NCBI GenBank assembly: GCA_019634385.1
Contig: JAHQVK010000069.1
Coordinates: forward strand, 22,182-86,181
Direction of reading: 5' to 3'
Origin: Myxococcales bacterium
GTDB lineage: Bacteria > Myxococcota > Kuafuiibacteriia > Kuafuiibacteriales > Kuafuiibacteriaceae
Length of the DNA: 64,000 nt
The translations under genes and the position numbers were made by a program. Positions 816 through 63,305 of this stretch are shown piece by piece (within the stretch, counting starts at the first letter, position 1; the number at the start of each line of letters is the position of its first letter). Below the pieces are notes generated by a model. The model had not been told where the DNA came from. It ran no database searches and was given only the letters and a program-made list of their open reading frames with translations.

Positions 816-899
816 TACAGCAAACAAGTGGCCGCGCAGCGGGGCATAGTCCGGCGTGGAAGCAGGAACCTGGGTTCAACCCAAGTGATTTCTGCTGTG
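816..899 (+). repeat. Family A repeat, copy A1 (5' hairpin deleted)
   Basis: tacagcaaacaagtggccgcgcagcggggcatagtccggcgtggaagcaggaacctgggttcaacccaagtgatttctgctgt. Lies just downstream of the parE stop. Confidence 0.85.
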
Positions 900-10879: not shown

Positions 10880-11063
10880 TAGGGCGTGTCTTTACACTAC
10901 GGACCGCGTTCTGACTTGTTTCCCGCGTATGTGAGGGTTCGGTGGTTTCGCCCCTCTTTCGGGCCTTTCGGCCGGGTACGTCCAGTACCCTCCCTCCGAG
11001 GCCGACTCTTCAACTCCGGCTACGGTGTCATCTCCGCAGCCGGAGTTTGAAGATGCGCCCTAA
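10880..11063 (+). repeat. Family B repeat, copy B1
   Basis: tagggcgtgtctttacactacggaccgcgttctgacttgtttcccgcg...ggagtttgaagatgcgcccta. About 185 bp with imperfect terminal inverted repeats and a long internal hairpin. Confidence 0.85.
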
Positions 11064-11085: not shown

Positions 11086-11199
11086 TACAGCAAAGACCAC
11101 TTGAATTGATTCTGTAAGAATCAACAAGTGGTCGCGCAGCGGAGCATAACCCGGTGTGGAAGCAGGATCTTGGGTTGAACCCAAGTGATTTCCGCTGTA
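11086..11199 (+). repeat. Family A repeat, copy A2 (full length, reference copy)
   Basis: TACAGCAAAGACCACTTGAATTGATTCTGTAAGAATCAACAAGTGGTCGCGCAGCGGAGCATAACCCGGTGTGGAAGCAGGATCTTGGGTTGAACCCAAGTGATTTCCGCTGTA. It has three hairpins and terminal inverted TACAGC..GCTGTA. Confidence 0.9.
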
Positions 11200-12089: not shown

Positions 12090-12282
12090 CTGATGAAACT
12101 GGATTTGAAGCGGCTTCCGGCTATGGAGATGACGCCGTATCCCGCGTGTGTGAAGGGTCGTCCCCGGAGGGAGGGTACTGTATGTACCCGGCTGAGGGGC
12201 CCGAAACCGTGGCGAAACCACCGAGCACTCTCAAATGTGGGAAACAAGTCAGAAAACGGTCCGGAGTGTAAAGACACGCCCT
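12090..12282 (-). repeat. Family B repeat, copy B2 (left end divergent, boundary approximate)
   Basis: ...ggagatgacgccgtatcccgcgtgtgtgaagggtcgtccccggagggagggtact...gggaaacaagtcagaaaacggtccggagtgtaaagacacgccct. Confidence 0.8.
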
Positions 12283-12323: not shown

Positions 12324-12435
12324 TACATCAAAGACCCCTTGAATTGATTCTGTAAGAATCAACAAGAGGTCGCGCAGCGGGGCATAGCCCGGCGTAGAAG
12401 CAGGAACTTGGGTTCAGTCCACGGGATTCTGCTGG
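12324..12435 (+). repeat. Family A repeat, copy A3
   Basis: tacatcaaagaccccttgaattgattctgtaagaatcaacaagaggtcgcgcagcggggcatagcccggcgtagaagcaggaacttgggttcagtccacgggattctgctgg. The 3' hairpin is degraded. Confidence 0.85.
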
Positions 12436-12461
12436 ACTACCCGTGGTCGACCAGGTTTGAC

Positions 12462-12536: not shown

Positions 12537-15263
12537 CTAATTAACATTACACGAAGCGTATTTGCCTTTTGAGTAGCAAACTTCAGGAACGCCACTGAGA
12601 TCTACGTTCCTAAGGGCGAACCGACTGCTTGAGCAGTCAGAGCGGAACACAGCTTCCTTCACGTTGCTAATGCTCGAGTTTTCGATCGTCCAATTGACTG
12701 GATAGCATCTTCCACCGTTTTCCCTCAGGACCTTACCTGCGTTGGTGATGATCGCGTTTCTCACAACTACTGTTGATCGAGCATTGGACTGGAAGACTTT
12801 GTCTGCTGCGTCTCGGGCAGTGATGTTACTGATAGTTACGTTGGCAGAGGACTTGATCGTGAGGGCATCCTCACAGACATTGGGCCAGTGAATATTGGTG
12901 ATGGTGGCGTTGCCGTACACATGGATGCCGTCACCACGTGGCCCAACGATCACATTTTTCAGCGTTCCGCCGTTTACGCGGAAGACCGGATCCTGCCCTT
13001 CACCCTGAGTGCAATCCCCCCAAGTTGGGGTATAGGTCTTACAGCCGCCATCAAAGGTGCCATTGACCTGGATTGTGCTTGAAACTCGCACGTTACCTTG
13101 GGAGCTTGTACAGGACGAACCACGACCTGAAGGACTGGGACTTGGCTCTGGGTTCGGTTCGGGCGTAGAGTTGTTGAAGTCGCTGCAATCACTTGCAGTT
13201 CCAACACCTGGTCCCGTGACTTCGAGATAGTCGATGTTAGCGAGACCAGAGCCTTGGTTTGCTGTGAGGGTCACGCGCTTGGTGCCGCTACCAAGATTGA
13301 GCGTCACTGCTCCCGTGTTGTTCCAAGAGTCCCAGCCACCAGTCCCGGAGAAGTTTTGGGTTCTAACGTTGCTACCATTGATGCGGACATTACCCGAGCG
13401 ATTGTCGGAGGTACCATTGGCATACTGCCATCGGAAGGTATACGAGCCCGATTGACCGGAAATACTCCAACCAACACTGGCCCCATTCGTGTTGTCGGTA
13501 TTCGCGAAGCCATCGCCGGAAAACCCACCGTTGTTGTTATCGACTGAGCCGTTGACACCACAGAACCCTGGAGAGTTCTCCTGGATTCGGATGGTTGGGT
13601 TGGGGCTTGGTGCTGGAGCGGGCTCCGGTTCTGGAGCGGGCTCTGGATCTGGTTCCGGAGCGGGCTCTGGATCTGGGTTAGGACCCCCACAACTACTGGG
13701 CGTCACGACACCCGGTCCGGATACTTCGAGGTAGTCAATGTTTGCGAGGCCGGAACCTTGATTTGCTACCAGGCGCACCGTCTTGGTTCCCCCGCTGAGA
13801 TTGAGCGTAACTGAAGTTGTTGTCCACGACTCCCATCCCCCGGTCCCCGGGAAATCCTCAGTGGAAAAGTTGCTGCCATTGACTAGAACCTGCCCAGAGC
13901 GGTTTGCGGTGGACCCATTTGCGTACCGCCACCGGAGGGTGTACGCCCCTGAGGGACCAGTAATGCTCCAGGTCACGCCTTGGCCATTGGCGTTTTCAGT
14001 GTTGGCAAAGCCATTCCCAGTGAAATTGCCGTTGTTGTTATCTACCGAACCGTCAACACCACAGAAACCGGAGGCATTCTCTTGAATCCGAGTGGTTGGC
14101 CCGCCGGGGCTTGGATCCGGGTCTATTGGATCTGGTTCCGGAGCGGGCTCTGGATCTGGTTCCGGAGCGGGCTCTGGATCTGGTTCTGCGGGGTTGGAGC
14201 AGTTACCACTCGATCTGCGCATACCGGTATTTGCACCTGCGGTGCTGCGAACAATCGATGGGACACAACTAGCTTGGTCCACTCTATAGCTATAGGGCAC
14301 ATTCACACTGCCGGTCGACCGGACATTTGGACCAGCCGGACGTTGGCTGCTGCTCGATTGCCATTCAACGTTGGAGAAAATATTGCCGCTGACCTCCCAG
14401 GTTCCGTTAGTATCGGTATAGAAGGTTCCAAGCGGATTGCGAGAATCAACAAAGTAGTTACCTTGAACGAGGGCTCGACCGCCAGCGCGGACGTTGATAC
14501 CGGTTTCGTTGATGCCATCATAAAAATTGTTGAAAATATGCCCGGTCCCGTACCGAAAAAGAGGGGTTCGGGTGTTAATGTTTTCCCACCAGTTGTGGTG
14601 GTAAGTTATGTAGTTGTTTTGGTCGCTCTCGCTTGAACCTACCAAACCACCACGGCCAGAATTTCGGAAACGGTTATAAGATATAGTTACATACTGGGTG
14701 TTGTTCTTCATGTCGAGCAACCCGTCGTAACCTTCATTCTCTCCCCCAAAAGCCTCTAGGGTGCAGTGGTCAATCCAGACATTTCGAACATCCTTCTCCA
14801 TCCCGATGGCGTCTCCGCCATTTGAGGTGGTGCCTCCGGATTTCTTAACATCACGAACATGAACATTCTGAATAATGATATTCGAGGAGTCTCGGATATG
14901 AATACCAATCTCATCAAAAACGGCACGACCCGAGCCCCGGATGGTGACGTTACTAACTTCCTTAATCTCAATCACGTTATCAGCGGTGTTGCAGCTATCG
15001 CCACTGACTTTTGAAGTGTTAGATGGGGTAATAGTCCCCGACACCTCGATGATAACCGGGGAGCTGCTCGACGAGCGGTTGCACAGTGCCTGGTGAATCT
15101 GGGTACCAGTACTCGCACGGACAACGGGGCCACCAGCACCGCCATCGGTGCCACCGTAGCCGACGATTTGTGCGTTGGCTTCGCCTGTCATGAAAAGAGC
15201 AAGTGCTACACCGACTGTTGCTTTCAGTCCTACGTAGCCTGCCTTAATATATAAAAATCTCAC
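12537..15263 (-). CDS. Secreted multidomain pectate lyase: PL1 domain, two CBM6/35-like modules, PL3 domain
   Basis: 908-aa ORF with a signal peptide (ALALFMTGEANA). PL1 motifs are VWIDHCT, RSGRGGLVGSSESD and RYGTGHIFNNFY. Two about 130-aa repeats each end in GLANIDYLEV. The C-terminal PL3-type region reads FRVNGGTLKNVIVG..DGIHVYG..NVCEDALTIKS. Domains are joined by PEPAPEPDP linkers. GGAGGA lies upstream of the GTG start. Confidence 0.85.
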   Translation of the reverse strand: MRFLYIKAGYVGLKATVGVALALFMTGEANAQIVGYGGTDGGAGGPVVRASTGTQIHQALCNRSSSSSPVIIEVSGTITPSNTSKVSGDSCNTADNVIEIKEVSNVTIRGSGRAVFDEIGIHIRDSSNIIIQNVHVRDVKKSGGTTSNGGDAIGMEKDVRNVWIDHCTLEAFGGENEGYDGLLDMKNNTQYVTISYNRFRNSGRGGLVGSSESDQNNYITYHHNWWENINTRTPLFRYGTGHIFNNFYDGINETGINVRAGGRALVQGNYFVDSRNPLGTFYTDTNGTWEVSGNIFSNVEWQSSSSQRPAGPNVRSTGSVNVPYSYRVDQASCVPSIVRSTAGANTGMRRSSGNCSNPAEPDPEPAPEPDPEPAPEPDPIDPDPSPGGPTTRIQENASGFCGVDGSVDNNNGNFTGNGFANTENANGQGVTWSITGPSGAYTLRWRYANGSTANRSGQVLVNGSNFSTEDFPGTGGWESWTTTSVTLNLSGGTKTVRLVANQGSGLANIDYLEVSGPGVVTPSSCGGPNPDPEPAPEPDPEPAPEPEPAPAPSPNPTIRIQENSPGFCGVNGSVDNNNGGFSGDGFANTDNTNGASVGWSISGQSGSYTFRWQYANGTSDNRSGNVRINGSNVRTQNFSGTGGWDSWNNTGAVTLNLGSGTKRVTLTANQGSGLANIDYLEVTGPGVGTASDCSDFNNSTPEPNPEPSPSPSGRGSSCTSSQGNVRVSSTIQVNGTFDGGCKTYTPTWGDCTQGEGQDPVFRVNGGTLKNVIVGPRGDGIHVYGNATITNIHWPNVCEDALTIKSSANVTISNITARDAADKVFQSNARSTVVVRNAIITNAGKVLRENGGRCYPVNWTIENSSISNVKEAVFRSDCSSSRFALRNVDLSGVPEVCYSKGKYASCNVN
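13200..14192 (-). repeat. Internal tandem duplication (linker plus CBM unit, two copies) within the pectate lyase gene
   Basis: Unit 1 is about 13704-14192 and unit 2 about 13200-13685. The linker DNA (tggttccggagcgggctctggatctgg) is near-identical in both, and the CBM peptides are clearly paralogous (TRIQENASGFCGVDGSVDNNNG versus TIRIQENSPGFCGVNGSVDNNNG). Confidence 0.8.
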
Positions 15264-15859: not shown

Positions 15860-15928
15860 GATGTTATTGATGAACTGAAGCGAGTTGAGGTTCTGATTTT
15901 ATGGTCTGCAGGCTGGGTATCTGCGTAA

Positions 15929-16043
15929 TAGAGCAGAAATCCCTTGGGTTGAACCCAAGTTCCCGCTTCTCCGCTGGGGCTATGCCCCGCTGCGCGACCC
16001 CTTGCTGATTCTAAGAGAATCAATTCAAGTGGTCTTTGCGGTA
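15929..16043 (-). repeat. Family A repeat, copy A4
   Basis: Reverse orientation: tagagcagaaatcccttgggttgaacccaagttcccgcttct...gcgcgaccccttgctgattctaagagaatcaattcaagtggtctttgcggta. Confidence 0.85.
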
Positions 16044-16191
16044 TTAGATGTTTGTATAACGAGGTGTTGATTGTTTGGGAGGGTTGGTATGCCCTTCGTT
16101 AAGATAATGTATACATAATTGATTCTTAGCACTCTACCCGTTGATGCAGAGGTGAGGGTTGGCTTAGCACATAAGCCGTCTGTTTCGTTAG

Positions 16192-16364
16192 CAGCCGGTT
16201 GATTTGGCCATGTGTGTAGCTGTCGAGCCCGGCTTTTCGTGAAACGCTCTGACGACGAGGCGAGCGTACCCGGCGGTACGTGACCGAGGAGAGACTTTTC
16301 GTGGTCAGGACGTTTCACGGAAAGACCGGCCGACAGATGCGTGCAGGGCTAGATCAACCGGCTG
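16192..16364 (+). mobile_element. Family C MITE-like element, copy C1, flanked by a 4-bp direct duplication TTAG
   Basis: cagccggttgatttggcc...gggctagatcaaccggctg. It has roughly 19-nt terminal inverted repeats, and the whole 173 bp folds as a long hairpin. The flanks read cgTTAG|cagcc...ggctg|TTAGgg. Confidence 0.85.
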
Positions 16365-16518
16365 TTAGGGCCATCATGCCCTCTCGGATGTATCGGTTGT
16401 ATTACTAATTGTAGTGGTCTTTACTGCAGAAGTTGGTTGGCTTGAATCCAAGGACCAGCGACTGCGCTTGCTATTGCTCTGCTGCATCAAGACCACTGGG
16501 CAGGAAACAGCAGGGATA

Positions 16519-16632
16519 TACAGCAGAAATCCCCTGGGTTGAACCCGAGTTCCTGCTTCTTTGCGGGGCAATGCCCCGTTGCGCGACCCCTTGTTGATTC
16601 TTGGAGAATCAATTCAAGTGGTCCTTGCTGTA
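16519..16632 (-). repeat. Family A repeat, copy A5
   Basis: Reverse orientation: tacagcagaaatcccctgggttgaacccgagttcctgcttct...gcgcgaccccttgttgattcttggagaatcaattcaagtggtccttgctgta. Confidence 0.9.
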
Positions 16633-21190: not shown

Positions 21191-21345
21191 TCGGGATGAG
21201 GCCCTAGGATGACTCCCAGCGATTCACTTTACCTACTGTTTTTCAAAACAGCATGAATCATCGGTGCTTAGGTAGAGTGAATCGTGCGGGATAACCAGGA
21301 CGATGCTTGCCAGCCTGGACGTTCTGTGTCTTCGATGCGCCTCCG

Positions 21346-24114
21346 ATGGGCAAGAGACTGGTCATAACCGAGAAACCGAGTGTAGCTAGAGACATTGTCG
21401 GTGCGCTCGGTGGCTTCTCGGAAGAGGACGGATACTGGGAGAGCGCGGAGTATCTGGTGACTTTCGCCGTCGGCCATTTGTTCGAGTTACCTGCACCCGA
21501 TGATATCGACCCCAAGTACAAACGGTGGACGCTCGATACGCTCCCGATTCTGCCGGAAAGTTTCCCACTCAAAGCGAAGTCCGGCACCCGTGAGCGAGTT
21601 TCGGTTCTAAAGAGGCTTCTGAAGCGAGACGACATCGACACGCTTGTGAATGCCTGTGATGCGGGGCGGGAAGGTGAGCTGATCTTTCGCGAGATTACCG
21701 AGTTTTTTGAGGCGAAGCACCCGATCGAACGATTATGGCTCCAGTCTATGACCAAGCGGGCGATCAATGAGGGCTTCAGGTCTCTTCAAGACGGTCACCG
21801 CTTCGACGGGCTTTCGGATGCAGCCCATTGTAGAAACTATTCCGATTGGCTGATCGGTATGAATGCAACTCGGGCTCTCACTCGTCGGCTAAAATCGCGG
21901 AGTGAGAATGCGGCTTGGAGTGCTGGACGGGTGCAAACCCCCACGCTGGCGATGCTGGTTGATAGGGAGTTTGATATTCTCAAGCACGTGCCGGTGCCTT
22001 TTTGGCGGGTGTACGCTGATTTTGCGCACAAAGGGCTTAGCTATCGAGGGACATGGTTCGATCCAAATTTCAAACCTAAGTCGGGTGAAGGTGATGAGGC
22101 ACTTAAGGATGATCACATCCTATCTGAAACCCGCGCTCAGGAGATTCTGGCGAAGATTTCTGGTCAAGCCGGTACCGCCAGAGAAACGAGAAAGCCATCC
22201 AAAGAGGCTGCGCCACTGTTGTTCGACTTAACCTCGCTTCAGCGGGAGGCTAATCGTCGTTTTGGTTGGTCAGCACGCCGAACGCTTAATGCTGCCCAAC
22301 GCTGCTACGAAGCGCATAAGGTTCTTACTTATCCACGTACAGATACAAAGTTTTTACCTGATGAATATCGATCGGTTGTGACTGAGGTGATCGATCAACT
22401 GGGTGAGGATGAGAGGTTTCGTCAGGCAGCTGCGACGCTTCGGAACAAGGGATTACTCAACGAGAAAAAGATCTTTGATGATGCGAAGATCACTGACCAC
22501 TTTGCGATTGTTCCTACTGGAGCGCTCGTCAACGACCTCGGGGGGGATGACGGGCGGATATTTGATCTTGTTACTCGCCGTTTCTTAGCCGCTTTTTTCC
22601 CGCCGGCAATCTGGTCTCGGGTCGAACGTGTTACTGAGGTTGAAGGGGAGTCTTTCAGATCACGAGCTCGAACCCTTCAGGTCCCTGGTTGGCGGTCGGT
22701 GCTGGGGGATGAAGCTTCCGAAGGTGCGGAGCGGTTGCCCCCCCTTGTAGATGGACAAGATGAAGCGAGCGGGGTTTCGGTGGAACTAACCTCGGGGGAA
22801 TTGGAAGAGGATGAGACCAAAGCTCCGTCGCGAATTTCTGAAGCCCGACTACTCTCGCTGATGGAGAATGCGGGTCGCTACGTGGATGATGACGAGGCTG
22901 CAGAGGCCATGAAAGCCTCGGGCATTGGTACTCCGGCCACCCGCGCGGACATTATCGAAAACCTGATCACCAAAGGCTATGTTGCGCGAGTAGGACGAGG
23001 CCTAAAACCGTCCGTTAAAGGTATCCGCCTGATAGATATCCTGCGCCGGATGAACGCGGAACGTCTGGCTTCCCCATCACTGACTGGAGAACTGGAAGCG
23101 CATTTAGGTAGGGTCGAACGAGGGGGATCCACTCGTGACGCATTTATGGAGGAGGTCTATGGCTACGCTCGGGAGATTGTCGAGCTCGCCAAGAGTTTTG
23201 AGTTTGAGGATCTATATCCCAACCAAGATACTCTCGGAACCTGTCCCTGCGGTAAGAAAAAGGCGGTCTACGAACGTTCGTGGTTCTATCGATGTGAAGA
23301 GCCGGAGGGTCTCGATTGGCAGACTATTAAGGCGATGAAGAAGGCAGGAGAGGAGCCTCCAGAAGACTGTTCGTTTCGGGTTTGGAAGGATAAGTCAGGC
23401 CGGTACATCGATCGCAAAACGGTTAGCGAACTCTTGGAGACCCGTCAATCACGTGTGCTTGACGGGTTTGTGGGTCGAAACGGCCGTACGTTTAAGGGCG
23501 TGTTGGAACTTACGGAGGAGGGTGTGGAACTCCGTCCGATCGAAGGGAGCTCCAGTGACGAAGAAGTCGCAGAGACCCCGGAATACGAGGTCAACGAGAC
23601 TCCTCTTTTGCAATGTCCTGTGTGTAGTGAGGGACAGATTGTTGAGACCCGCTCTACCTTTGTCTGCACCCAAGGTCTCCGCGTTCTTAAGGCGCTTGAG
23701 CGGGATGAAGCAAGTGTGATGCCGGTCAAGAAAAAGGCCATCCCCGAGAATATGGTCTATTGTTCGGCGCTACTACCGCGGACGGTCTGTAAACGGGAGG
23801 TCACCAGAGATGAGGCCTTAGCGTTTTTTCAGGAGGAGAAGACACCCATTCTTGAGGGTTTTACATCTCGTCGAGGGCGTCCTTTCTCCGCGCAATTATT
23901 TCTGAAGGAAGAAACCGGTCGACATGGTTTTGAGTTTCCTCCGCGGGGGGGAAGTGACGGAGAAAAAACGGACTCCAAGGGCGTAAAAAAGAAGACGGCG
24001 ACCAAGAAGAAAGCGGCAACCAAGAAGAAAGCGGTCGTAACAAAAGCGGTGGCGACCAAGAAGAAAACGGTTGTGAGAAAGCGGGTGGATTCAGCCCCTG
24101 CGCTAGAGTCATAG
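21346..24114 (+). CDS. topB: DNA topoisomerase III with C-terminal zinc-ribbon/Toprim_Crpt-like repeats and a Lys-rich tail
   Basis: MGKRLVITEKPSVARDI...TFAVGHLFEL is a Toprim N-terminus of TopB type. LTYPRTDTKFL carries the catalytic Tyr. C-terminal CxxC pairs are followed by repeated GFVGRNGRTFKG and GFTSRRGRPFSA units, and the tail reads KKKTATKKKAATKKKAVV. Start chosen at ATG 21346. Confidence 0.85.
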   Translation: MGKRLVITEKPSVARDIVGALGGFSEEDGYWESAEYLVTFAVGHLFELPAPDDIDPKYKRWTLDTLPILPESFPLKAKSGTRERVSVLKRLLKRDDIDTLVNACDAGREGELIFREITEFFEAKHPIERLWLQSMTKRAINEGFRSLQDGHRFDGLSDAAHCRNYSDWLIGMNATRALTRRLKSRSENAAWSAGRVQTPTLAMLVDREFDILKHVPVPFWRVYADFAHKGLSYRGTWFDPNFKPKSGEGDEALKDDHILSETRAQEILAKISGQAGTARETRKPSKEAAPLLFDLTSLQREANRRFGWSARRTLNAAQRCYEAHKVLTYPRTDTKFLPDEYRSVVTEVIDQLGEDERFRQAAATLRNKGLLNEKKIFDDAKITDHFAIVPTGALVNDLGGDDGRIFDLVTRRFLAAFFPPAIWSRVERVTEVEGESFRSRARTLQVPGWRSVLGDEASEGAERLPPLVDGQDEASGVSVELTSGELEEDETKAPSRISEARLLSLMENAGRYVDDDEAAEAMKASGIGTPATRADIIENLITKGYVARVGRGLKPSVKGIRLIDILRRMNAERLASPSLTGELEAHLGRVERGGSTRDAFMEEVYGYAREIVELAKSFEFEDLYPNQDTLGTCPCGKKKAVYERSWFYRCEEPEGLDWQTIKAMKKAGEEPPEDCSFRVWKDKSGRYIDRKTVSELLETRQSRVLDGFVGRNGRTFKGVLELTEEGVELRPIEGSSSDEEVAETPEYEVNETPLLQCPVCSEGQIVETRSTFVCTQGLRVLKALERDEASVMPVKKKAIPENMVYCSALLPRTVCKREVTRDEALAFFQEEKTPILEGFTSRRGRPFSAQLFLKEETGRHGFEFPPRGGSDGEKTDSKGVKKKTATKKKAATKKKAVVTKAVATKKKTVVRKRVDSAPALES

Positions 24115-30948: not shown

Positions 30949-31005
30949 TACAGCAGAAATCCCTTGGGTAGAACCCAAATTCCTGCTCTCCGCGCGGCTA
31001 TGCCT
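30949..31005 (-). repeat. Family A repeat, copy A6 (truncated; abuts the stop codon of the RlmN/Cfr paralog)
   Basis: tacagcagaaatcccttgggtagaacccaaattcctgctctccgcgcggctatgcc, after which similarity is lost at the gene's TAG (31009-31011). Confidence 0.7.
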
Positions 31006-34893: not shown

Positions 34894-35116
34894 GCCCCGT
34901 AAGTGGCATAGATAGAGGTTCTATGTCATTGTCAACCAACAGCTCCTGTAAGCATGCACTTGGAGTTCTTGGGTTAAAGGCGTGTCTTTAATTCGTCCTG
35001 GCTGAACTTGAATGTTCAGTGATCGAGGGGAGTCCTCATGTAACCGATGGCCTCTCAGTCAGGGGGCTATGACTAGCCGTTCGAGTTCGAATGTTTAGTT
35101 AAAACAGAATTTTAAC

Positions 35117-35229
35117 TAAAGCATAAATCCCTTAGGTTGAACCCAAGTTTCTGCTTCGCAGCGGGGCTATGCCCGGGTGCGCGACCCCTTGTTGATTCTT
35201 ATAGAATCAATTCAAGTGGTGTTTGTTGT
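35117..35229 (-). repeat. Family A repeat, copy A7
   Basis: taaagcataaatcccttaggttgaacccaagtttctgcttcgcagcggggctatgcccgggtgcgcgaccccttgttgattcttatagaatcaattcaagtggtgtttgttgt. Confidence 0.85.
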
Positions 35230-35247
35230 GAACAGGGGAGATGAATC

Positions 35248-35430
35248 TAGGGTGTGTCTTTACTCTTCGGCGTCGGAGATGACGCGGTCTCCCGCGTGTG
35301 TGAGGGTTCGACCCCGGAGGGAAGGTACCGGATGTACTTGGGCGGGGGGCCCGAAAGGGTGGCGAAGCCACCCCCTCACAAACGCAGGATACAAGTCAGA
35401 ACGCGGTCCGGAGGTTAAAGACTCGCCCTA
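35248..35430 (-). repeat. Family B repeat, copy B3
   Basis: tagggtgtgtctttactcttcggcgtcggagatgacgcggtctcccgcgtgtgtgagggttcgaccccggaggg...caagtcagaacgcggtccggaggttaaagactcgcccta. Confidence 0.85.
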
Positions 35431-35611
35431 GAGTGCCTATTTTGATTGCAGAGAACGTCTCAGCTAGGAAGCCTGCCGAGGAGCCGAGCGCGGGATCTAA
35501 CCGTGCGGCGTTGGTATTCAAACCTCTCTCTGGTAGCCGCAGCTTGGTTGGGGACCTTAGCCATAGCTAGACGGTTTCGAGGGCATAGCTAACTGACCGA
35601 CAGATCCCTAA

Positions 35612-35723
35612 TCCAGCAAAGGCCCCTTGTTGATTCTGTAAGAAACACCAAGGGGTCGCGCCGCGGGGCATGGCGTGGCGTAGAAGCAGGAACTTGGGTT
35701 CAACCCAAGTGATTTCTGCTGTG
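35612..35723 (+). repeat. Family A repeat, copy A8
   Basis: tccagcaaaggccccttgttgattctgtaagaaacaccaaggggtcgcgccgcggggcatggcgtggcgtagaagcaggaacttgggttcaacccaagtgatttctgctgtg. Confidence 0.85.
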
Positions 35724-35889
35724 AGAGGAGTGATCGCAGATCATGGGTATTCGCCGAAAAAAGGGAGCGTTATGGACCGTGTCCGAGGGTAAAGACCCGC
35801 TCTCTTCAGTGAAGAGTCATAGATCACGTTTGATGGTAAGAACCGCTCCAAAATAGGTTCTTTCGTAGAGCTAGGAGATCAGTCTCCGC

Positions 35890-35978
35890 TACAGCAAACC
35901 CGGTTGGGTTGAACAGAAGCTCCTGCGGCTATGCATAGCTTTGCCGTGCTTAGCGACCATTTAAGAGTTTGTTTGTGA
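35890..35978 (-). repeat. Family A repeat, copy A9 (degenerate)
   Basis: tacagcaaacccggttgggttgaacagaagctcctgcggctatgcatagc...gcgaccatttaagagtttgtttgtg. Only partial similarity; ends approximate. Confidence 0.5.
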
Positions 35979-37657: not shown

Positions 37658-38806
37658 ATGATGAGCGAAGAATCCGGCGTCAGCGGACCCCTGTGGTTGC
37701 TGGCCGAATTGACCTACCGGTGCCCCCTGCAATGTCCGTATTGCTCAAATCCTAGTAACTACGAGGAGTCGCTGAGCCACGAGCTAACCACCGAAGAGTG
37801 GATAAGTGCGCTGCGGCAGGCGCGAGCTATGGGAGCGGTCCAACTAGGCTTATCGGGAGGTGAGCCCTGTCTACGTACCGATTTGGAGGAAATTGTTGCT
37901 GAAGCCCATAAGTTAGGTTTTTATACCAATCTCATTACTTCCGCCTATAATTTATCTTCCGAGCGAATTAGTAATCTCAAAGAGGCGGGTTTAGACCATA
38001 TCCAAGTTAGTATTCAGGGGGCGGATAAGCGTACTAATGACCTGTTGGCGGGTACTGCATGCTTCGATCGGAAAATTGCTGCTCTCTATCATATAAAAGA
38101 GCAAGGTTACCCACTTGTATTTAACTTTGTTGTTCATCGATTTAATATTCATCAAGTTTGGGACTTACTTACCTTGGCGAATATGGTTGAGGCAGATTTT
38201 GTAGAAGTTGCTAACTGTCAGTACCACGGCTTTGCTTTTCTTAATAAGGAAGCACTACTTCCGACCCCCTTGCAGATACGACAGGCGGAAGAAGAGGTGG
38301 CTCGCTTCCGCTCCCAACTAAGCCGAAAAATGGAGATCTTCTTTGTGGTACCGGACTACTTCGAAGAGCACATAAGTCCGTGCGTCAATGGCTGGGGGAC
38401 CACGATGGTCAATGTATCACCAAACGGTCGTGTGTTGCCTTGTCATGGTGCGGGTGAGATGAAGCATCTTCCCATACCGAACATTCGGGAACAGAGCCTC
38501 CAGGATATCTGGTATCACTCCACATTGTTCAATCAATATCGAGGCACTTCATGGATGAAGGAGCCATGTGCTTCTTGCCCGGAGAAAGAAAAGGACTTTG
38601 GGGGGTGCCGGTGCCAAGCGCTGGCATGGACACAGGATGCTGCAAATACAGATCCGTGTTGCCCTAAGTCTCCTCATCACGGCTTGATCGAGAAGCTGGT
38701 AGACCCAGCCAGTCAACGTCAACCATTGGTACAGTTACGGAACACCCGGGGCACGAAGATGGAGTTTGGTGAGCTAGTGTTTAGAGGCGCAGCAAAGGCC
38801 ACTTGA
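37658..38806 (+). CDS. pqqE: PQQ biosynthesis radical-SAM/SPASM enzyme PqqE
   Basis: LLAELTYRCPLQCPYCSNP (CxxxCxxC) plus a C-terminal Cys-rich SPASM region (CASCPEKEKDFGGCRCQA). The last codons and the TGA stop lie inside a family-A repeat. Confidence 0.9.
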   Translation: MMSEESGVSGPLWLLAELTYRCPLQCPYCSNPSNYEESLSHELTTEEWISALRQARAMGAVQLGLSGGEPCLRTDLEEIVAEAHKLGFYTNLITSAYNLSSERISNLKEAGLDHIQVSIQGADKRTNDLLAGTACFDRKIAALYHIKEQGYPLVFNFVVHRFNIHQVWDLLTLANMVEADFVEVANCQYHGFAFLNKEALLPTPLQIRQAEEEVARFRSQLSRKMEIFFVVPDYFEEHISPCVNGWGTTMVNVSPNGRVLPCHGAGEMKHLPIPNIREQSLQDIWYHSTLFNQYRGTSWMKEPCASCPEKEKDFGGCRCQALAWTQDAANTDPCCPKSPHHGLIEKLVDPASQRQPLVQLRNTRGTKMEFGELVFRGAAKAT

Positions 38807-38890
38807 ATTGATTCTGTAAGAATCAACAAGTGGCCCATAGCCCGGCGTAGAAGCAGGAACTTCGGTTCAACCCAAGTGATTTCTGCTGTA
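38788..38890 (+). repeat. Family A repeat, copy A10 (fills the pqqE-pqqC junction; contains the pqqE stop)
   Basis: cgcagcaaaggccacttgaattgattctgtaagaatcaacaagtggcccatagcccggcgtagaagcaggaacttcggttcaacccaagtgatttctgctgta. The TGA of pqqE is the 'cacTTGAatt' TGA at 38804-38806. There is a small internal deletion relative to the consensus. Confidence 0.9.
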
Positions 38891-39724: not shown

Positions 39725-39839
39725 TACAGCAAAGACCCCTTGAATTGCTTCTGTAAGAATTACCAAGTGGTCGCGCAGGGGGCATAGCCCCCAACGGAGA
39801 AGCAGGAACTTGGGTTCAACCCAAGTGATTTCTGCTATA
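39725..39839 (+). repeat. Family A repeat, copy A11
   Basis: tacagcaaagaccccttgaattgcttctgtaagaattaccaagtggtcgcgcagggggcatagcccccaacggagaagcaggaacttgggttcaacccaagtgatttctgctata. Lies between the convergent pqqC and cupin genes. Confidence 0.9.
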
Positions 39840-44207: not shown

Positions 44208-44591
44208 GTGATATATTCTCTTGCGTTGTACAATTATGGCAAGCTGTACAAGTAAGCAAAATGCTATGAGCTTTGACCGAAAGGACTGTGAGGTCTGGTC
44301 TGCAGAAGTCAGATGCGACGCGCTTTTTGCAGAAGTTGCAAAGAGTAGTCCCACTCCCTTTCTCGCTAAGAAGATTCTCCGAGTCACAACAGGGTATCAA
44401 ACTTATCGGTGCTCTGGTTTCCGAAGAAGTCAGTGTTGAGCCATCTTTTCGTCTTTCGGCGTTTCTTGAGGCAGTATTGGCCTTTGGGATGATCAGTTTT
44501 GCGTTCATTATTCTCAACAACCGTAGATAGCGGCCCGACTGCTCATGAACAAACTCAGGCAATCTGAAACAAGAAAGTGGCTCATGGATTA

Positions 44592-44771
44592 TAGGGCGTT
44601 TCTTTAACCTCCGGACCGCGTTCTAACTTGTTTCCCCCATGTGTGAGGGGTCGGTGGCTTCGACACCCTTTCGGGCCCCTCGGCCCGGTACATCCAGCCT
44701 CCCTCCGGGGCTGACCACTCACAAACACGGGCTATGCATCTACGTGGCCGGAGTTTAAAGAGATGGCCGAG
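44592..44771 (+). repeat. Family B repeat, copy B4
   Basis: tagggcgtttctttaacctccggaccgcgttctaacttgtttccccc...ggccggagtttaaagagatggccg. Confidence 0.8.
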
Positions 44772-44873
44772 AAGCTTGTGCAGTGTCTTACGGGTGTGAA
44801 TAGTGTGGAGGGCGTGTTGCTGAAGTCGGTAGGGAACTATCGTTGAGGGCCCGAAGTGCCAGAATGTTCGGGT

Positions 44874-45107
44874 TACAGCAAAGACCCCTTGCTGATTCTT
44901 ACAGAGTCCATTCAACAGCCTGTTGATTTAGCCCTGTGTATAGCTATCGAGCCAGGCTTTTCGTGAAACGTTCTGACGACGAGGCGAGCGTACCTGGCGG
45001 TACGCGACCGAGGAGAGACTTTTTGTGGTCAGGATGTTTCACGGAAAGACCGGCCGATAGATGCCTGCAGGGCTAGATCAACAGGCTGTCAAGTGGTCTT
45101 TGCTGTA
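44874..45107. repeat. Family A-derived mini-palindrome (A12), split by insertion of family C copy C2
   Basis: The left part, 44874-44915, is tacagcaaagaccccttgctgattcttacagagtccattcaa. The right part, 45089-45107, is tcaagtggtctttgctgta. Joined with one tcaa removed, they restore the A terminal hairpin ..attcaagtggtctttgctgta. Confidence 0.75.
44916..45088 (+). mobile_element. Family C MITE-like element, copy C2, flanked by a 4-bp direct duplication TCAA, inserted in an A-type palindrome
   Basis: cagcctgttgatttagccc...gggctagatcaacaggctg, closely similar to C1 over its full length. Flanks are atTCAA|cagcc...ggctg|TCAAgtgg. It contains the TAG stop of the GNAT gene (45073-45075). Confidence 0.85.
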
Positions 45108-45582
45108 TACGCCCTATCAGTTGGGATAGGTGGATAGAATAGCAGGTGGGTGAACACGCATAAAAACCCAGAGCCTCCCAGAATGGAGCGGCGGGGGAGT
45201 TAGGTTTCAGAAGATAAGCTCGAATATGCTCAAGGTACGGATCTCGCTGGTACGCTCGGTTGGCACATACTCTAATAAGTTGTGACCCGATCTGCCGGCG
45301 TCGAACCTTTTCGGAGACGACTATTTGGCTTATTGTCATCGCATCTGACTCTGGATAGCCGAGCGTTACATCTGCAATAGCAAAGGGTTGCTCGTTGATC
45401 CAGGCCACCATAATGAGGCGCTGGGGATCAGATGCTGCGGACCATGCGCGTTCCTGGCAGTTTTCGAGTTTACCGTTTGCGGGTAGTAAGAGGGGGTGGG
45501 CTTGATGGAGGAGTCGATCCATGGCTTGAAGGTGAGCCATTGAGGTCGTGAGCTTTAGCTCTTTGAAACGTACCACAGGCAT
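45073..45582 (-). CDS. GNAT-family N-acetyltransferase (putative)
   Basis: 169-aa ORF. IVVSEKVRRRQIGSQLI resembles GNAT motif A (Q/RxxGxG/A). The last roughly 11 codons and the TAG stop are encoded by repeat elements A and C. Confidence 0.55.
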   Translation of the reverse strand: MPVVRFKELKLTTSMAHLQAMDRLLHQAHPLLLPANGKLENCQERAWSAASDPQRLIMVAWINEQPFAIADVTLGYPESDAMTISQIVVSEKVRRRQIGSQLIRVCANRAYQRDPYLEHIRAYLLKPNSPAAPFWEALGFYACSPTCYSIHLSQLIGRIQQRPLDSLLI

Positions 45583-52737: not shown

Positions 52738-54477
52738 ATGGCCCACGTAGCTTCCTCAGAGATAATGTCCGGTCGGGCGCTCATTATTGATAGGGACACC
52801 ACTTTTGCAGACCAGCTTGCAGATGAGCTCAGTCGCGAGGGCTACGATGTACAAACGTGCGATACTGGTCGAGAAGGCATAGAGCATGCGAAGACTGATG
52901 AGCCTGACCTGATCGTGCTCTGTGTCGAGTTGGAGGATACTTCAGGATACTCAATCTGTGCCAAGATCAAGAAAGATATCCGACTCAAAAACATCCCACT
53001 GATAATAACCAGCGAGAGAGCTACCCAAGAGACTTTCGACCACCACAGAAAGTTAAAAACCCGTGCTCAGGCCTATCTTATGAAACCGTTCGAGCCATCT
53101 GAATTAATTGCTGAACTTAGGGGTTCGACGAGCACCGCTAAAGCTCTATCTTCATCGAATATGCCCCCTCCGTTGCCTCCTACAACCGGGAGTGTTGAGT
53201 TACCCGAAGTAGGTTTGGAACCCCTCGACGTAGACCCGGAGATGACCACGGATGGGGATGATATTGACTCCGATTTTGAGCGGACTCTGGCTTCGTATTC
53301 CAAAACCCTCCCGCGACCCATGGAGACCGAGGGCATTGGCTCCGGTATTAATCTGCGAGAAGAGTTCGATGAAGATGAGGTGCGAACGACCATTGGTACC
53401 CTTCCAGCGACCGTTCTTGAGCAGCCGGTAGTGCCTACGGACTACGATGACTCGTTGGATTCCGCTGATGACAGTGCCCTCGGAGAGTTAAAAAGCCGCC
53501 TATTCGATGTCGAACGGGAGCGGGATGATGCTCTTGCTGGAGAGCGCGCTCTCCAGGCACAGCTTGAGGCATTAACTGCAGGCCAGCAGCAGCTACCTAA
53601 CGGTGAAGCAAACCGAGAGCTGATCGCTACCAAAAAAGAGCTGAACGCCAAGGAACGTGAGCTTCTTGAGCTGCGAGACAATCTCCAGCAGCGAGATCGA
53701 CAACTGTTGGTAGCCAAAGAGAAAGAAGCTGAGCTGGAAGAGCAAATCTTTCAGGCCGATGAAGAACGATCGAAAGCTGATCAAGCTAGGTTAGAAGCTG
53801 AGGGACGCATCGCTGGAGCGGAAGCGAGGGCAGAGCAGATTGATCTGACTTCCAAGGCGACGATTAATGGCCTCCGAGAAGAACTAACCTCAGTTCGGGG
53901 CTCTCTTGACGATAGTGAAATGAACCTCAATTCGGCTCGTGAATTGGGTGAGCGCCTAAACGCTGATCTGGATGAGGCTCACGAGGTTATGGCCCAACGA
54001 GCTCAAACGATTGAGGAGCGCGACCAACAAATTGCCGAATTACGCTCAGAGCTCGATCAAACTCGTTCTGAGTACGAACAAACTAGTGCCGAACTAGAGC
54101 AAGTTCGAGGCGAACTTGATCAAACACGCACGCAGTTGACGCGCCGAGAGAACGAGCTCGAGGATTTCAAGGAACAGCAAGAGGGATTGATACGACGTCT
54201 GGAGGCGTCGGAGTTAGAGGGACGCAATCAGGCGCAGGTCATTGAATCGATGCGCCGGCAAATCTCGGGTCTCGAACGTCAACTAAACGAAGCTCGTCAG
54301 CGTCATCATGATGAGGCGGATATTAGAGACAAGGCGCGACGGGCGGTGGAGATAGGACTAAATCTCCTGAATGAAGCTGATTACCCGGAAAGTAGTTCCG
54401 ATTTAGCTAAAGATGTAGATGAACCGTCTACCGGTGAGACACTCTCTGAAAGTATTCACACAGACGAGCCCCTTTAA
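52738..54477 (+). CDS. Receiver-domain protein with a long C-terminal coiled coil (FrzS-like architecture)
   Basis: The N-terminal roughly 125 aa is CheY-like (RALIIDRD..., PLIITS, YLMKPF), then a Pro/acidic linker and about 300 aa of heptad-rich E/L/R/Q sequence. Cys62 sits where the phospho-acceptor Asp is expected. Confidence 0.75.
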   Translation: MAHVASSEIMSGRALIIDRDTTFADQLADELSREGYDVQTCDTGREGIEHAKTDEPDLIVLCVELEDTSGYSICAKIKKDIRLKNIPLIITSERATQETFDHHRKLKTRAQAYLMKPFEPSELIAELRGSTSTAKALSSSNMPPPLPPTTGSVELPEVGLEPLDVDPEMTTDGDDIDSDFERTLASYSKTLPRPMETEGIGSGINLREEFDEDEVRTTIGTLPATVLEQPVVPTDYDDSLDSADDSALGELKSRLFDVERERDDALAGERALQAQLEALTAGQQQLPNGEANRELIATKKELNAKERELLELRDNLQQRDRQLLVAKEKEAELEEQIFQADEERSKADQARLEAEGRIAGAEARAEQIDLTSKATINGLREELTSVRGSLDDSEMNLNSARELGERLNADLDEAHEVMAQRAQTIEERDQQIAELRSELDQTRSEYEQTSAELEQVRGELDQTRTQLTRRENELEDFKEQQEGLIRRLEASELEGRNQAQVIESMRRQISGLERQLNEARQRHHDEADIRDKARRAVEIGLNLLNEADYPESSSDLAKDVDEPSTGETLSESIHTDEPL

Positions 54478-54478
54478 T

Positions 54479-54593
54479 GTGCAGTAAAGACCCCTTGAAT
54501 GGATTCTGTAAGAATCAACAAGTGGTCCGCAGTTGGGGCATAGCCCGGCGTAGAGGCAGGAACTTGGGTTCAATCCAAGTGATTTCTGCTGTA
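54479..54593 (+). repeat. Family A repeat, copy A13
   Basis: gtgcagtaaagaccccttgaatggattctgtaagaatcaacaagtggtccgcagttggggcatagcccggcgtagaggcaggaacttgggttcaatccaagtgatttctgctgta. Lies between two convergent genes. Confidence 0.9.
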
Positions 54594-54613: not shown

Positions 54614-55741
54614 TTAATTCCTTCCGCGGCTGCTGGCTAACTTGCTGGCGAGAGTACGGACGCCAGCGGGAATGTTTCTCGACCGGGCAAGTAGTTTTAT
54701 ATCCTTGGTATTCAACAACGGGACTAACCGCATGGCCACAGGGAGCGGGGTTTTCGGGTTTTTAACGAGCCCAAGTTTTACTTGATAGATACGGATCCAA
54801 TTATTCTTCTTATCCTTAGCGATATGAGCAATGACGTCTTGATGAGTGACCTTGGACTGTGATGCTTCTATGACCTCTGGCTCCTGAATCATAGGAGACG
54901 TAACCGCGGCTAAAGCCACAATTCGGCTAGTATGCCTCATGAGGGTTTTTCTGATTTGCTTATTGCCTTTGGTCGCATAAGCGATAAGCGCTGGGAGCGA
55001 CAATCGGCGCAGTCTCTCGTCGATAGGTAGGTTATTAAGATCCTCATTCGGAGTTTGTTCATCAATGATGGCCCGAGTGGGGGGAGCTTCTGCGAGAAGC
55101 TTGTCGTCCAGCAGTTCCGGGGGGACTGCGATCTGACTCACCGCTTCGATGCGGTCCTTGGCGTCCAAACGTAAGAGCGCGTGCTCAAACTCCCGTAGTC
55201 CTTCAAGGATAATCCCGCTTCGGATCAAAAAGTCGATACACCGATCAATGGTGGACTTTAGAGCGTGGGGGTTTTTGAGCAGGCCACGAACAATATCTGG
55301 GTATTCGAGGAGGCGGGCTTGGTTCCGAGCGATCAGTTCAACTATCGACTCGGTACACACGGCGGCCACATCTTCAAATACGTGACCTGGTGTGCTCGGG
55401 TTGAGGAGTAGGGGTTCGATATATGCGTCGCGGGAGGCGGCAAACAGTAGGCTTAAGTGACCTAATATCGCCTCATCGACCTGAGAATCAGAGAGAACCG
55501 ACTTTGCTATACGGGGATCCAGTGCCGCTAAGGATGCGCTGGCCGCTTGGGCGATCTTCGGTTGTTCGTCAAAGCTTAGAATAAATTGTGCGGTCACCAG
55601 GTCTCGTGGAGGCAGCGGGGCGAGACCTTTGGCAGCCATCATGCGTAGGGGTGGAGGGGCGGAGATACCAGTGTGCCGCTGCACAGCCGCGCTGGTTTGC
55701 TCAAGAGGTATCGGGCACGGAGGCTGACTGGGGTTGTTCAT
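54614..55741 (-). CDS. Hypothetical alpha-helical repeat protein (LRV/HEAT-like)
   Basis: 375-aa ORF with a recurring L(L/V)xNPxxP helical-repeat signature (LLLNPSTP, LLKNPHAL, LVKNPKTP). No confident family. Confidence 0.45.
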   Translation of the reverse strand: MNNPSQPPCPIPLEQTSAAVQRHTGISAPPPLRMMAAKGLAPLPPRDLVTAQFILSFDEQPKIAQAASASLAALDPRIAKSVLSDSQVDEAILGHLSLLFAASRDAYIEPLLLNPSTPGHVFEDVAAVCTESIVELIARNQARLLEYPDIVRGLLKNPHALKSTIDRCIDFLIRSGIILEGLREFEHALLRLDAKDRIEAVSQIAVPPELLDDKLLAEAPPTRAIIDEQTPNEDLNNLPIDERLRRLSLPALIAYATKGNKQIRKTLMRHTSRIVALAAVTSPMIQEPEVIEASQSKVTHQDVIAHIAKDKKNNWIRIYQVKLGLVKNPKTPLPVAMRLVPLLNTKDIKLLARSRNIPAGVRTLASKLASSRGRN

Positions 55742-55757: not shown

Positions 55758-56528
55758 TCAGGGACAACTGCGCTGGTAGATGAGGCGTAGACCCTCCAAT
55801 GTCAGGTGCTCATCTACGACCTCAATGGTCGTAGCGTCACGAGCAATGGTTGTAGCCAGCCCACCGGTACCAATGACCCGGATGGTCGTGGCCTCGAGCT
55901 CCGACCGAATCCGGGTAACCAGTCCGTCGACCATCGCTACGTGCCCAAAGTACGTACCAGACTGGATAGATTCGATTGTGTTGCGACCGGTGGCCCGCTC
56001 AGGTCGTCCGAAATCCACTTTTGGCAACTTTGCAGCTCGCGACAATAGAGCACCCATCGACACATGGACGCCAGGGACAATAGCACCTCCAGCATAGGTA
56101 CCGTCTTCAAGAACTGTGTCGATGGTAGTGGCGGTTCCAAAATCAACAATGATGCAAGCGCACTTAAATCGAGTGTATGCGGCTATGGCGTTAACAATGC
56201 GGTCCGCCCCAACATCTTTGGGTGGATCGTACCTGATAGGCATCCCCGTTTTTGTGCCTGGACCAACAACTAGGGCCGGCTGGTCAAAGACCTGCTGACA
56301 TAGCCTGACGAAGGTGCGGGTGAGAATAGGCACTACAGATGCGAGGACGATAGCCCTCACCATGTCTGGCTGGAGCTTTGCGAATGCAAATAGTTGACGA
56401 ATCATCAGCCCGTACTCGTCTTCGGTACGGGTATGTACGGTCTCTAGTCGCCAGCTGTGGATCAGCTGCTCATCGTTGTAGACGCCGATAACGAGGTTGG
56501 AATTGCCCAGGTCGAGAGCCAAAAGCAT
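55758..56528 (-). CDS. coaX: Type III pantothenate kinase
   Basis: MLLALDLGNSNLVIGVY, DFGTATT and GTGGLA motifs of the CoaX/Bvg accessory factor family. Start at ATG 56528. Confidence 0.85.
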   Translation of the reverse strand: MLLALDLGNSNLVIGVYNDEQLIHSWRLETVHTRTEDEYGLMIRQLFAFAKLQPDMVRAIVLASVVPILTRTFVRLCQQVFDQPALVVGPGTKTGMPIRYDPPKDVGADRIVNAIAAYTRFKCACIIVDFGTATTIDTVLEDGTYAGGAIVPGVHVSMGALLSRAAKLPKVDFGRPERATGRNTIESIQSGTYFGHVAMVDGLVTRIRSELEATTIRVIGTGGLATTIARDATTIEVVDEHLTLEGLRLIYQRSCP

Positions 56529-56708
56529 CGTCGTATCACTACAGTCCGGGTGCTCATTTAACCAGATGGCACTTGCCGCTACGAACAAGCGCACGGAGCG
56601 TCCTCGGCAGTAGGTTTGCGGTATGCCGGTTGTAGATACCTTGATCCGGTATAAAAAGGTCGATACCACCCCCTGACGTACCCGGCGGCGGAGGCCTCTT
56701 GCGGGGGG

Positions 56709-57248
56709 GTGCTAGAACCTATGCTCGGTAAAGAGGTTATGACCACAACTACGCGGGCTGCGGAGCGTTACCTACGACAGTGGTTAGCCCGCAACCCCTC
56801 AGTGGAAAAAGCGGTTGGATGGGGCAGAAAATTGTCCCTACAGCCGTATGTGTTTGCCACCAGCTGCTGTGGGCTCGAAGTTCAATCGGCTCGAGTCCAG
56901 CCCTATGACGCCCGACTTGGGGTAGGGTTCCCGGTGGTGGCTCCTCAGCAAGCGGATCTGCTGGTCGTGGCGGGTTCGATCAGTTGGAAGCAGTTGCCGA
57001 TTCTTCAATCGGTGTACAGGCATATGCCGGACCCGAAACATGTTTTGGCTTTTGGTGTCTGTGCCTCATCGGGGGGACTCTATCAAAACTACGCGACGGC
57101 CAAGAGCATCGAGAAGTTTCTTCCAGTGGATATCCACGTTCCTGGGTGTCCTCCTCGACCGGAAGCCTTGCTTGACGCTCTGCGGATGCTCGGTCGCTCA
57201 GGAGGGCGCAAAGACGCCATCAAGTTGGAGGAACGGAATGAGTATTGA
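56709..57248 (+). CDS. nuoB: NADH-quinone oxidoreductase subunit B
   Basis: FATSCCGLE, GVCASSGG and VPGCPPRPEALL, the N2 cluster ligand motifs. ATG 56721 is an alternative start. Confidence 0.9.
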   Translation: MLEPMLGKEVMTTTTRAAERYLRQWLARNPSVEKAVGWGRKLSLQPYVFATSCCGLEVQSARVQPYDARLGVGFPVVAPQQADLLVVAGSISWKQLPILQSVYRHMPDPKHVLAFGVCASSGGLYQNYATAKSIEKFLPVDIHVPGCPPRPEALLDALRMLGRSGGRKDAIKLEERNEY

Positions 57249-57696
57249 AGTGGTCGAATACATCTGTGAGCAAAAGCCGGAGCTAGTTGTTCGCACGGAA
57301 AGTGCTCATCGGGATGAGACGGTGGTGATTAGGGCACCGGATGTTGATAATTTTATGACCTTTGTTCGACGGGACACATCCACATCTTTCGAGATGCTCA
57401 TGGACATAACCAGTGTGGATCACGGGGAGCAACGTTCACCTCGATTTGAGGTGGTGTATCATCTATATTCGCTCACGAAGAATCATCGACTTCGCGTGAA
57501 GGTTCCCCTTGAGGAGCAAGCTCTGAGACTTTCGACGGTAAGCCACATTTGGCATGCCGCGACGTGGATGGAGCGGGAAGTTTTTGATCTCTATGGTGTT
57601 GTCTTCCAAGGAAACCCAGATCTACGGCGATTGTTGATGTTCTCAGATTTTGAAGGACATCCACTGCGTAAGGACTACCCTTTAGAGGGACGCTGA
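57238..57696 (+). CDS. nuoC: NADH-quinone oxidoreductase subunit C
   Basis: MSIEVV...FEVVYHLYS...HIWHAATWMEREVFDLYGVVFQGNPDLRRLLM...HPLRKDYP is the NuoC (30 kDa) signature. Start at ATG 57238, overlapping nuoB by 11 nt; the track ORF start at 57040 is an out-of-gene extension. Confidence 0.85.
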   Translation: MSIEVVEYICEQKPELVVRTESAHRDETVVIRAPDVDNFMTFVRRDTSTSFEMLMDITSVDHGEQRSPRFEVVYHLYSLTKNHRLRVKVPLEEQALRLSTVSHIWHAATWMEREVFDLYGVVFQGNPDLRRLLMFSDFEGHPLRKDYPLEGR

Positions 57697-63168: not shown

Positions 63169-63305
63169 TGGGGCGTGTCTTCAACTCCTGACCGTGTCCT
63201 GACTCGTGCCTCACATATCCGGTGCCCTCCCCCACCGGGGCCGACTGTTCACACTCGCGGGCTACGGCGTCATCTCCGCAGCCGGAGTGTGAAGACACGC
63301 CTTAG
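63169..63305 (+). repeat. Family B repeat, copy B5 (shorter, internal deletion)
   Basis: tggggcgtgtcttcaactcctgaccgtgtcctgactcgtgcc...gctacggcgtcatctccgcagccggagtgtgaagacacgccttag. Sits at the boundary between rlmN and the GC-rich dehydrogenase gene. Confidence 0.8.

Follow-up and report, generated by a model that had tools for sequence, protein, structure and literature searches.

Probable nested insertion of one miniature element within another at the 3' end of a GNAT acetyltransferase gene from a Myxococcales bacterium

Organization of the composite locus

The window, i.e. the whole stretch of DNA analysed here, comprises 64,000 nt of contig JAHQVK010000069.1 (positions 22,182-86,181, forward strand) from assembly GCA_019634385.1 of a Myxococcales bacterium. 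Its GC content is ~52%, and its GC skew is positive throughout all 64 kb. At window positions 44874-45107, a 234-bp composite overlaps the 3' end of an ORF assigned to the GNAT acetyltransferases and is made up of C2, a copy of a repeat family designated C, located inside a palindrome derived from a second repeat family, A (hereafter mini-A). The components of the locus, in window coordinates, are the following:

44874-44915, left part of mini-A: TA at 44874-44875, then CAGCAAAGACCCCTTGCTGATTCTTACAGAGTCCATTCAA; includes the left TCAA
44912-44915, left copy of the 4-bp target-site duplication, TCAA; the A consensus has a single TCAA, in AATTCAAGTGG
44916-45088, plus strand, C2, family C: 173 bp, 21-nt terminal inverted repeats, hairpin of almost full length, no coding capacity
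45089-45092, right copy of the 4-bp target-site duplication, TCAA; present too in the Logan contig L087
45093-45107, right part of mini-A: GTGGTCTTTGCTG then TA; identical to the right terminus of the family A consensus
45073-45582, minus strand, GNAT acetyltransferase ORF of 169 aa; Pfam domain over residues 44-148, Acetyltransf_1 match at 44-140 (E = 1e-9)

The left part of mini-A reads TA-CAGCAAAGACCCCTTGCTGATTCTTACAGAGTCCAT-TCAA and closes, immediately ahead of C2, with ...GAGTCCAT-TCAA. C2 itself starts with CAGCCTGTTGATTTAGCCCTG and ends with CAGGGCTAGATCAACAGGCTG, and the segment following the right TCAA (45093-45107) is GTGGTCTTTGCTGTA. The repeat finder reports two inverted repeats, one nested within the other. 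The outer arms (44874-44891 and 45090-45107) are 18 nt long and complementary at 17 of 18 positions (94%), and the inner pair corresponds to the termini of the 173-bp C2. The terminator scan did not return any intrinsic terminator at the composite, and no tRNA gene lies near it.

Family A

Family A is a TA-flanked repeat of ~115 bp with a three-hairpin layout, present in 11 copies in the 64 kb. Alignment of the 11 loci gives the consensus TA-CAGCAGAAATCACTTGGGTTGAACCCAAGTTCCTGCTTC...GCGGGGCTATGCCCCGC...GACCACTTGTTGATTCTTACAGAATCAATTCAAGTGGTCTTTGCTG-TA, and folding yields three hairpins, the A termini each pairing with an internal inverted copy of themselves. The copies are the following:

785-899, minus strand, diverged right-type end
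11086-11199, minus strand, full-length; best match to the rebuilt target described below (91.7% over 48 nt)
12324-12437, minus strand, degenerate left-type end
15929-16043, plus strand, full-length
16519-16632, plus strand, full-length, the reference copy, from left-type TACAGCAGAAATC to right-type GGTCCTTGCTGTA; three hairpins
30949-31000 (end approximate), plus strand, truncated to the left hairpin and part of the centre only
35117-35230, plus strand
35612-35723, minus strand
38788-38890, minus strand, internal deletion
39725-39839, minus strand
54480-54593, minus strand

These copies are mutually 63-87% identical (mean 77-80%). The A terminus, CAAGTGGTCTTTGCTGTA, occurs 13 times in the window at no more than three mismatches (0.02 expected), and none of 100 shuffles of the window reached the observed count. 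A TA dinucleotide lies outside the CAGCAG/CAGCAA ends of A on the left in 8 of 10 cases and on the right in 5 of 8, as well as on both sides of mini-A, and no direct repeat longer than TA was seen outside the ends of the aligned A loci. Judged from these alignments, the TA fits a duplication of the IS630/Tc1 type, but it could equally be the terminal part of the inverted repeat.

The A copies adjoin gene ends. A radical-SAM/SPASM ORF (37658-38806) takes its last 6 codons and its stop from the copy at 38788-38890. The copy at 54480-54593 begins 2 nt past the stop of ORF 52738-54477, and the convergent ORF 54614-55741 has its stop 21 nt away from this copy.

Family C and the duplication at its ends

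Two copies of family C are found in the 64-kb window, C2 and the following one:

16192-16364, plus strand, C1, family C: 173 bp, 92% identical to C2 and in the same orientation

The 21-nt C terminus occurs four times, at both ends of the two copies, when 0 occurrences are expected, and it has no match in 100 shuffles of the window. C1 and C2 differ by 14 substitutions and no indels, and their similarity ends exactly at CAGCC...GGCTG. Outside these boundaries, TTAG stands on either side of C1 (16188-16191 and 16365-16368) and TCAA on either side of C2, as direct rather than inverted repeats at both loci. Two such independent 4-nt flank identities would arise by chance with a frequency of ~(1/256)^2. 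As the flanks match within each copy and differ between C1 and C2, they bear the signature of a 4-bp target-site duplication, and comparison of the two copies (n=2) supports this reading over that of a conserved terminal or cleavage motif. The earlier note, made from the sequence alone, had taken the rebuilt target at C2 as independent support for a 4-bp duplication and had listed, among the observations that would speak against its reading, a TCAA repeat that is not a duplication. C1, with its TTAG flanks, places TCAA outside the element and gives the duplication independent support.

Family C displays several features of a MITE, with a length of 173 bp, no transposase coding capacity, terminal inverted repeats (20 of 21 positions complementary in C2) and a duplication of fixed length and variable sequence (n=2). 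Among the 14 differences between C1 and C2, two are fully compensated across the arms (positions 6/168, G-C to T-A; positions 31/143, G-C to A-T), which argues that the palindrome has been maintained. The fold of the plus strand reaches -107.5 kcal/mol for C1 and -109.6 kcal/mol for C2, versus -85.3 and -87.2 kcal/mol for the minus strand. This gap of ~22 kcal/mol is due to the 8-10 G.U pairs of the plus-strand hairpin, each of which is a C.A mismatch on the other strand; the plus-strand hairpin itself has ~1 C.A mismatch. Both copies are in the same orientation, on the G-rich strand. Selection acting on one of the strands, either as RNA or as single-stranded DNA, might underlie this strand asymmetry, and so might a strand-biased C-to-T mutation. 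The G.U excess is common to both copies and therefore amounts to one observation, which the strand-biased C-to-T mutation behind the GC skew can explain.

Reconstruction of the target and order of events

Deletion of C2 and of one TCAA joins 44874-44915 to 45093-45107 and yields a 57-nt palindrome, TACAGCAAAGACCCCTTGCTGATTCTTACAGAGTCCATTCAAGTGGTCTTTGCTGTA. The expected C-free allele of the locus would read ...CCATTCAAGTGGTC..., and ...GAGTCCATTCAAGTGGTCTTTGCTGTA... across the junction. In eight full A copies, the right end aligns over 36-48 nt with nucleotides 10-57 of the rebuilt target and is 87.5-91.7% identical to it (E values of the 57-mer from 2e-13 to 2e-6). The 57-mer aligns ungapped to all nine full A copies with a recognisable right end (scores of 29-40 out of 48), while retention of both TCAA requires a 4-nt gap and lowers the score in every A alignment. 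The A terminus is therefore rebuilt exactly when the element and a single TCAA are removed, as the earlier note had described, and the coordinates and sequences that it gave for a C copy nested in an A-derived hairpin are those found here.

The left edge of the rebuilt target departs from the full A copies. Its first 13 nt (TACAGCAAAGACC) complement the right terminus exactly, whereas the full A copies have GCTGCGCGACC at this place. The presence of two right-type termini around the right-hand hairpin indicates that the target was a distinct mini-A rather than a truncated full copy. This mini-A folds as DNA at -14.9 kcal/mol (z = -6.9), and C was inserted into the 3' arm of its stem, at the inner end. 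No uninterrupted mini-A was found elsewhere in the window.

Because C interrupts A, A came first and C followed. This order, also claimed in the earlier note, is read from the topology of the locus, and the greater divergence among the A copies (mean 77-80% identical) than within the C pair (92%) is consistent with it.

The 3' end of the GNAT gene

The GNAT ORF takes its 11 final codons and its stop from the composite, in agreement with the earlier reading of this locus. On the minus strand, from 45108 to 45073, these codons are ATA CAG CAA AGA CCA CTT GAC AGC CTG TTG ATC TAG and encode the tail IQQRPLDSLLI followed by the stop. Three sources thus contribute to residues 159-169 and the stop: the A flank encodes IQQRP and the first base of the L codon, the duplication encodes the rest of L and two bases of D, and the C terminus completes the D codon with its last base and adds SLLI and the stop. 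Computing the ORF without C gives a protein of 168 aa that ends ...IQQRPLEWTL, with its stop inside mini-A. Computing it without mini-A and one TA gives 248 aa, running through a family B repeat without restoring a nearby stop; the frame (44604-44915, minus strand) stays open for ~90 further codons through this repeat, B2. The original stop must then have been lost or displaced by earlier events, and the ancestral end of the gene is not recoverable.

In the nearest solved homologue, 3exn, 17 residues follow the aligned block, and in the GNAT query 18 residues that do not derive from MITEs are found at this place. The MITE-derived tail therefore starts where the GNAT fold ends. On this comparison, the enzyme is probably intact, with its 11-residue MITE tail lying outside the fold.

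The right junction in an independent assembly

Exact-protein look-up recovered four contigs of the same organism (L084-L087) in the Logan assembly of SRR12681089, all of them lying inside the window and 99.9% identical to it. One of them, L087 (9436 bp), ends ...GGGCGTATACAGCAAAGACCACTTGACAGCCTGTT, given also as ...TACAGCAAAGACCACTTGACAGCCTGTT, and matches the window exactly from the A flank across TCAA to the ninth nucleotide of C. An artefact of the source assembly can therefore be dismissed as the origin of the right junction. L087, which runs past this junction, gives no sign of a C-free allele in the SRR12681089 sample. The four Logan contigs all break inside A, B or C repeats. C1 and C2 have no 31-mer in common, yet L087 stops 9 nt into C2, which suggests a drop of coverage at a strong hairpin.

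Proposed history of the locus and alternative explanations

The locus very probably results from a nested insertion, in which a mini-A present at the 3' end of the GNAT gene later received a C element with a 4-bp TCAA duplication. In a first step, a TA-flanked mini-A of 57 nt, comprising a right-type A terminus on either side of the A right-hand hairpin, would have come to the 3' end of the gene, giving it the tail ...IQQRPLEWTL and a stop codon of mini-A origin. In a second step, C would have integrated into the 3' arm of mini-A via a staggered 4-bp cut at TCAA, and gap repair of this cut would have left TCAA on both sides of the element. The tail would then have become ...IQQRPLDSLLI, with the stop moved into C. 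Both elements would have been transposed by DDE-type transposases acting in trans. The enzyme mobilizing A was probably IS630/Tc1-like, given that the A copies are TA-flanked, and that mobilizing C would be one that makes 4-bp duplications. The limits of the elements, the duplication, the exact rebuilding of the A terminus, the order of events and the change in the ORF can be seen directly in the sequence, and transposition by these enzymes is an inference. Ordinary DNA transposition of non-autonomous elements is the best-supported process, and the composite leaves the known workings of such elements unchanged.

Other histories can be considered for the same arrangement. The nesting might have taken place elsewhere, C entering another mini-A and the 234-bp composite then being moved here by an A transposase. 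The outer 18-nt termini of the composite are indeed still complementary at 17 of 18 positions with TA on both sides, and the composite retains everything expected to be necessary for an A-type transposase. However, the window contains no second composite and no other A/C junction, and this history costs one event more than insertion in situ, which makes it unlikely. The flanks might also be what remains of a full A copy of 115 bp after loss of its left two thirds, a loss perhaps linked to the arrival of C, as nucleotides 10-57 of the rebuilt target correspond only to the right-hand hairpin of full A and the window offers no other mini-A. A simple deletion, however, makes no second terminus, while the 13 nt of the left edge (TACAGCAAAGACC) exactly complement the right terminus where full A has ...GCTGCGCGACC, and TA is found on both sides of mini-A. 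This origin is accordingly very unlikely. Assembly or coincidence could be invoked as well: the source contig is metagenome-assembled, and short-read assemblies of this organism break inside these very repeats, so that a chimera joined at repeats, or a chance resemblance, might be suspected. Against this stand E values versus A down to 2e-13, terminus counts that 0 of 100 shuffles reach, a Logan contig that crosses the right junction with identical sequence, and a precise 4-bp duplication that is not expected from a misjoin. Such an explanation is scarcely credible.

Two further readings concern the nature of C rather than the nesting. C may be a single-strand hairpin element of the IS200/IS605 type (PATE), or one selected as RNA, its flanks being a recognition motif. 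Its nearly full-length hairpin, better on the plus strand, and the identical orientation of both copies on the G-rich strand speak in this direction. Yet the flanks differ between copies (TTAG versus TCAA) and match within each, as in a duplication and not as in a fixed cleavage motif, the 21-nt terminal inverted repeats are genuine, and the G.U excess counts once for both copies and has a mutational explanation. This leaves the reading highly improbable. A bolder proposal, and a quite unlikely one, is that C is a hairpin selected on one strand that integrates preferentially into the extruded hairpins of other MITEs. If so, the MITEs of this genome would combine into structured composites by which the 3' ends of genes are rewritten again and again, and the modular A together with the lone mini-A would hint at an assembly of MITEs from hairpin modules.

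Mobilization, relatives and host

A Pfam scan of 30 window ORFs of at least 200 aa did not return any transposase domain, including Y1-transposase. Within this size range, only the ORFs at 54614-55741, 55758-56669 and 57040-57696 lack a Pfam result, and most remaining large ORFs belong to non-transposase Pfam families precomputed on the Logan contigs. A and C were therefore most likely mobilized in trans. Neither an autonomous partner for C nor an IS630-like partner for A was found in the window. A partner insertion sequence of C would be expected to have ends reading CAGCCNGTTGAT, and one of A, presumably IS630-like, ends reading TA-CAGCA[GA]A.

Searches with exact and degenerate DNA patterns against one genome per GTDB species returned no A or C relative among the matches listed, and the same kinds of patterns found none in JGI metagenomes; a DNA pattern search of viral contigs was also negative. 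The single C-terminus match listed, in a Thiorhodovibrio MAG (L088), is attributed to chance, being one-sided, located inside coding sequence and devoid of a partner terminus. Plasmid sequences gave no blastn match to the composite or to a full A copy, and Rfam gave no match, either at the gathering score across the window or at E<=1 within 44400-45200. A and C are thus new families, with no relative in the collections searched, of a well-known kind of element and in an equally well-known nested arrangement.

The proteins of the locus are also isolated. A search of 5.8 billion proteins returned no homologue of the GNAT protein other than the protein itself, and its matches in one genome per GTDB species are only 24-36% identical. 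The best match of the neighbouring FadL, in a Myxococcales MAG, is 35% identical. For LepA, the best match is 65% identical, with hits in Myxococcaceae, Vicinamibacterales and Bdellovibrionales MAGs. With protein matches this distant, the host thus belongs to a deep-branching, unsampled Gram-negative lineage, which is uncultured, Myxococcota-like and repeat-rich. No related genome carrying the orthologous locus or an empty site was present in the collections searched.

Comparison with known elements

REP/BIME units are palindromes of 20-40 nt with a conserved GTAG-type head, usually clustered and associated with a RAYT transposase. A and C were not assigned to them, as these two families, of 115 and 173 bp, have terminal repeats as well as duplications at their flanks. 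C was likewise not assigned to the IS200/IS605-derived PATEs, its flanks being variable and duplicated and its terminal inverted repeats true ones. IS5-group elements, considered as possible mobilizers of C, produce a 4-bp duplication at YTAR targets according to ISfinder descriptions. Of the flanks of C (n=2), TTAG fits this pattern and TCAA does not, and the C termini begin with CAG, not GG. In eukaryotes, nested MITEs (plant Stowaway/Tourist, fungal MITEs) are known, and the precise rebuilding of the host element is used to establish the order of events. The present composite differs from them by its bacterial host and by the nature of the interrupted element, a 57-nt mini-derivative at a gene end.

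Turning to bacteria, A resembles Correia/NEMIS of Neisseria and RUP of Streptococcus pneumoniae, the latter linked to IS630-Spn1, in its length of ~100-150 bp, terminal inverted repeats, TA at both ends, long stem-loops and many copies beside gene ends. In contrast with them, A forms three hairpins, both termini being paired with internal copies of themselves, and no sequence similarity was detected in the collections searched. More generally, bacterial MITEs of 100-200 bp have terminal inverted repeats, duplications and long stem-loops, and can fuse with ORFs, and other mobile elements are known targets of RUP insertion (Delihas review, PMC2229807). C is similar in size to ERIC/YPAL (127-168 bp, enterobacterial, versus 173 bp), which is also a near full-length imperfect palindrome; like C, it occurs close to genes in transcribed regions, can continue the reading frame of the upstream gene, and has an orientation-dependent stability (PMC2229807). 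C differs from it by its 21-nt terminal inverted repeats and its 4-bp duplication of variable sequence, with two copies seen, and the two share no sequence similarity.

Fusions of MITEs to ORFs have been described for the Rickettsia RPE, for RU-3 with an acetyltransferase fragment, and for the 107-bp form of Correia (PMC2229807). The GNAT protein likewise carries a translated MITE as its C-terminal tail and ends at a MITE stop codon. Its tail differs from these cases in having been rewritten twice by successive elements, and in being limited to 11 residues outside the fold. The tail and stop of this gene would thus have been replaced two times by mobile DNA with the enzyme fold left untouched. 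As a clear bacterial case of a MITE within a MITE, the composite dates A and C relative to each other and gives an independent measure of the duplication length of C.

Other repeats in the window

A third family, B, comprises GC-rich repeats of ~150-190 nt that are mutually 76-85% identical and have no Rfam match. Its copies are the following:

10880-11062, family B
12117-12222, family B
35268-35430, family B
44592-44780, family B
63240-63304, family B

Family B copies are nearly always located 20-150 nt from an A copy, and one of them precedes the composite on its left side at a distance of 90 nt. Families A, B and C constitute new entries for MITE catalogues and account for the fragmentation of short-read assemblies of this organism. 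Two stacks of repeats, both intergenic, are also found. The first (15927-16632) contains an A copy, C1, a degenerate A-like piece (16406-16500) and a second A copy, and the other (35115-35958) contains A, B, A and an inverted A fragment (35904-35958). Lastly, repeats occur within coding sequences: in-frame 12-nt repeats encoding Gly/Ser-type linkers at 13597-14207, in a pectate-lyase/CBM6 ORF (12537-15263), and Lys-rich 18-nt repeats at 23979-24070, at the C-terminus of the topoisomerase I ORF (21307-24114).
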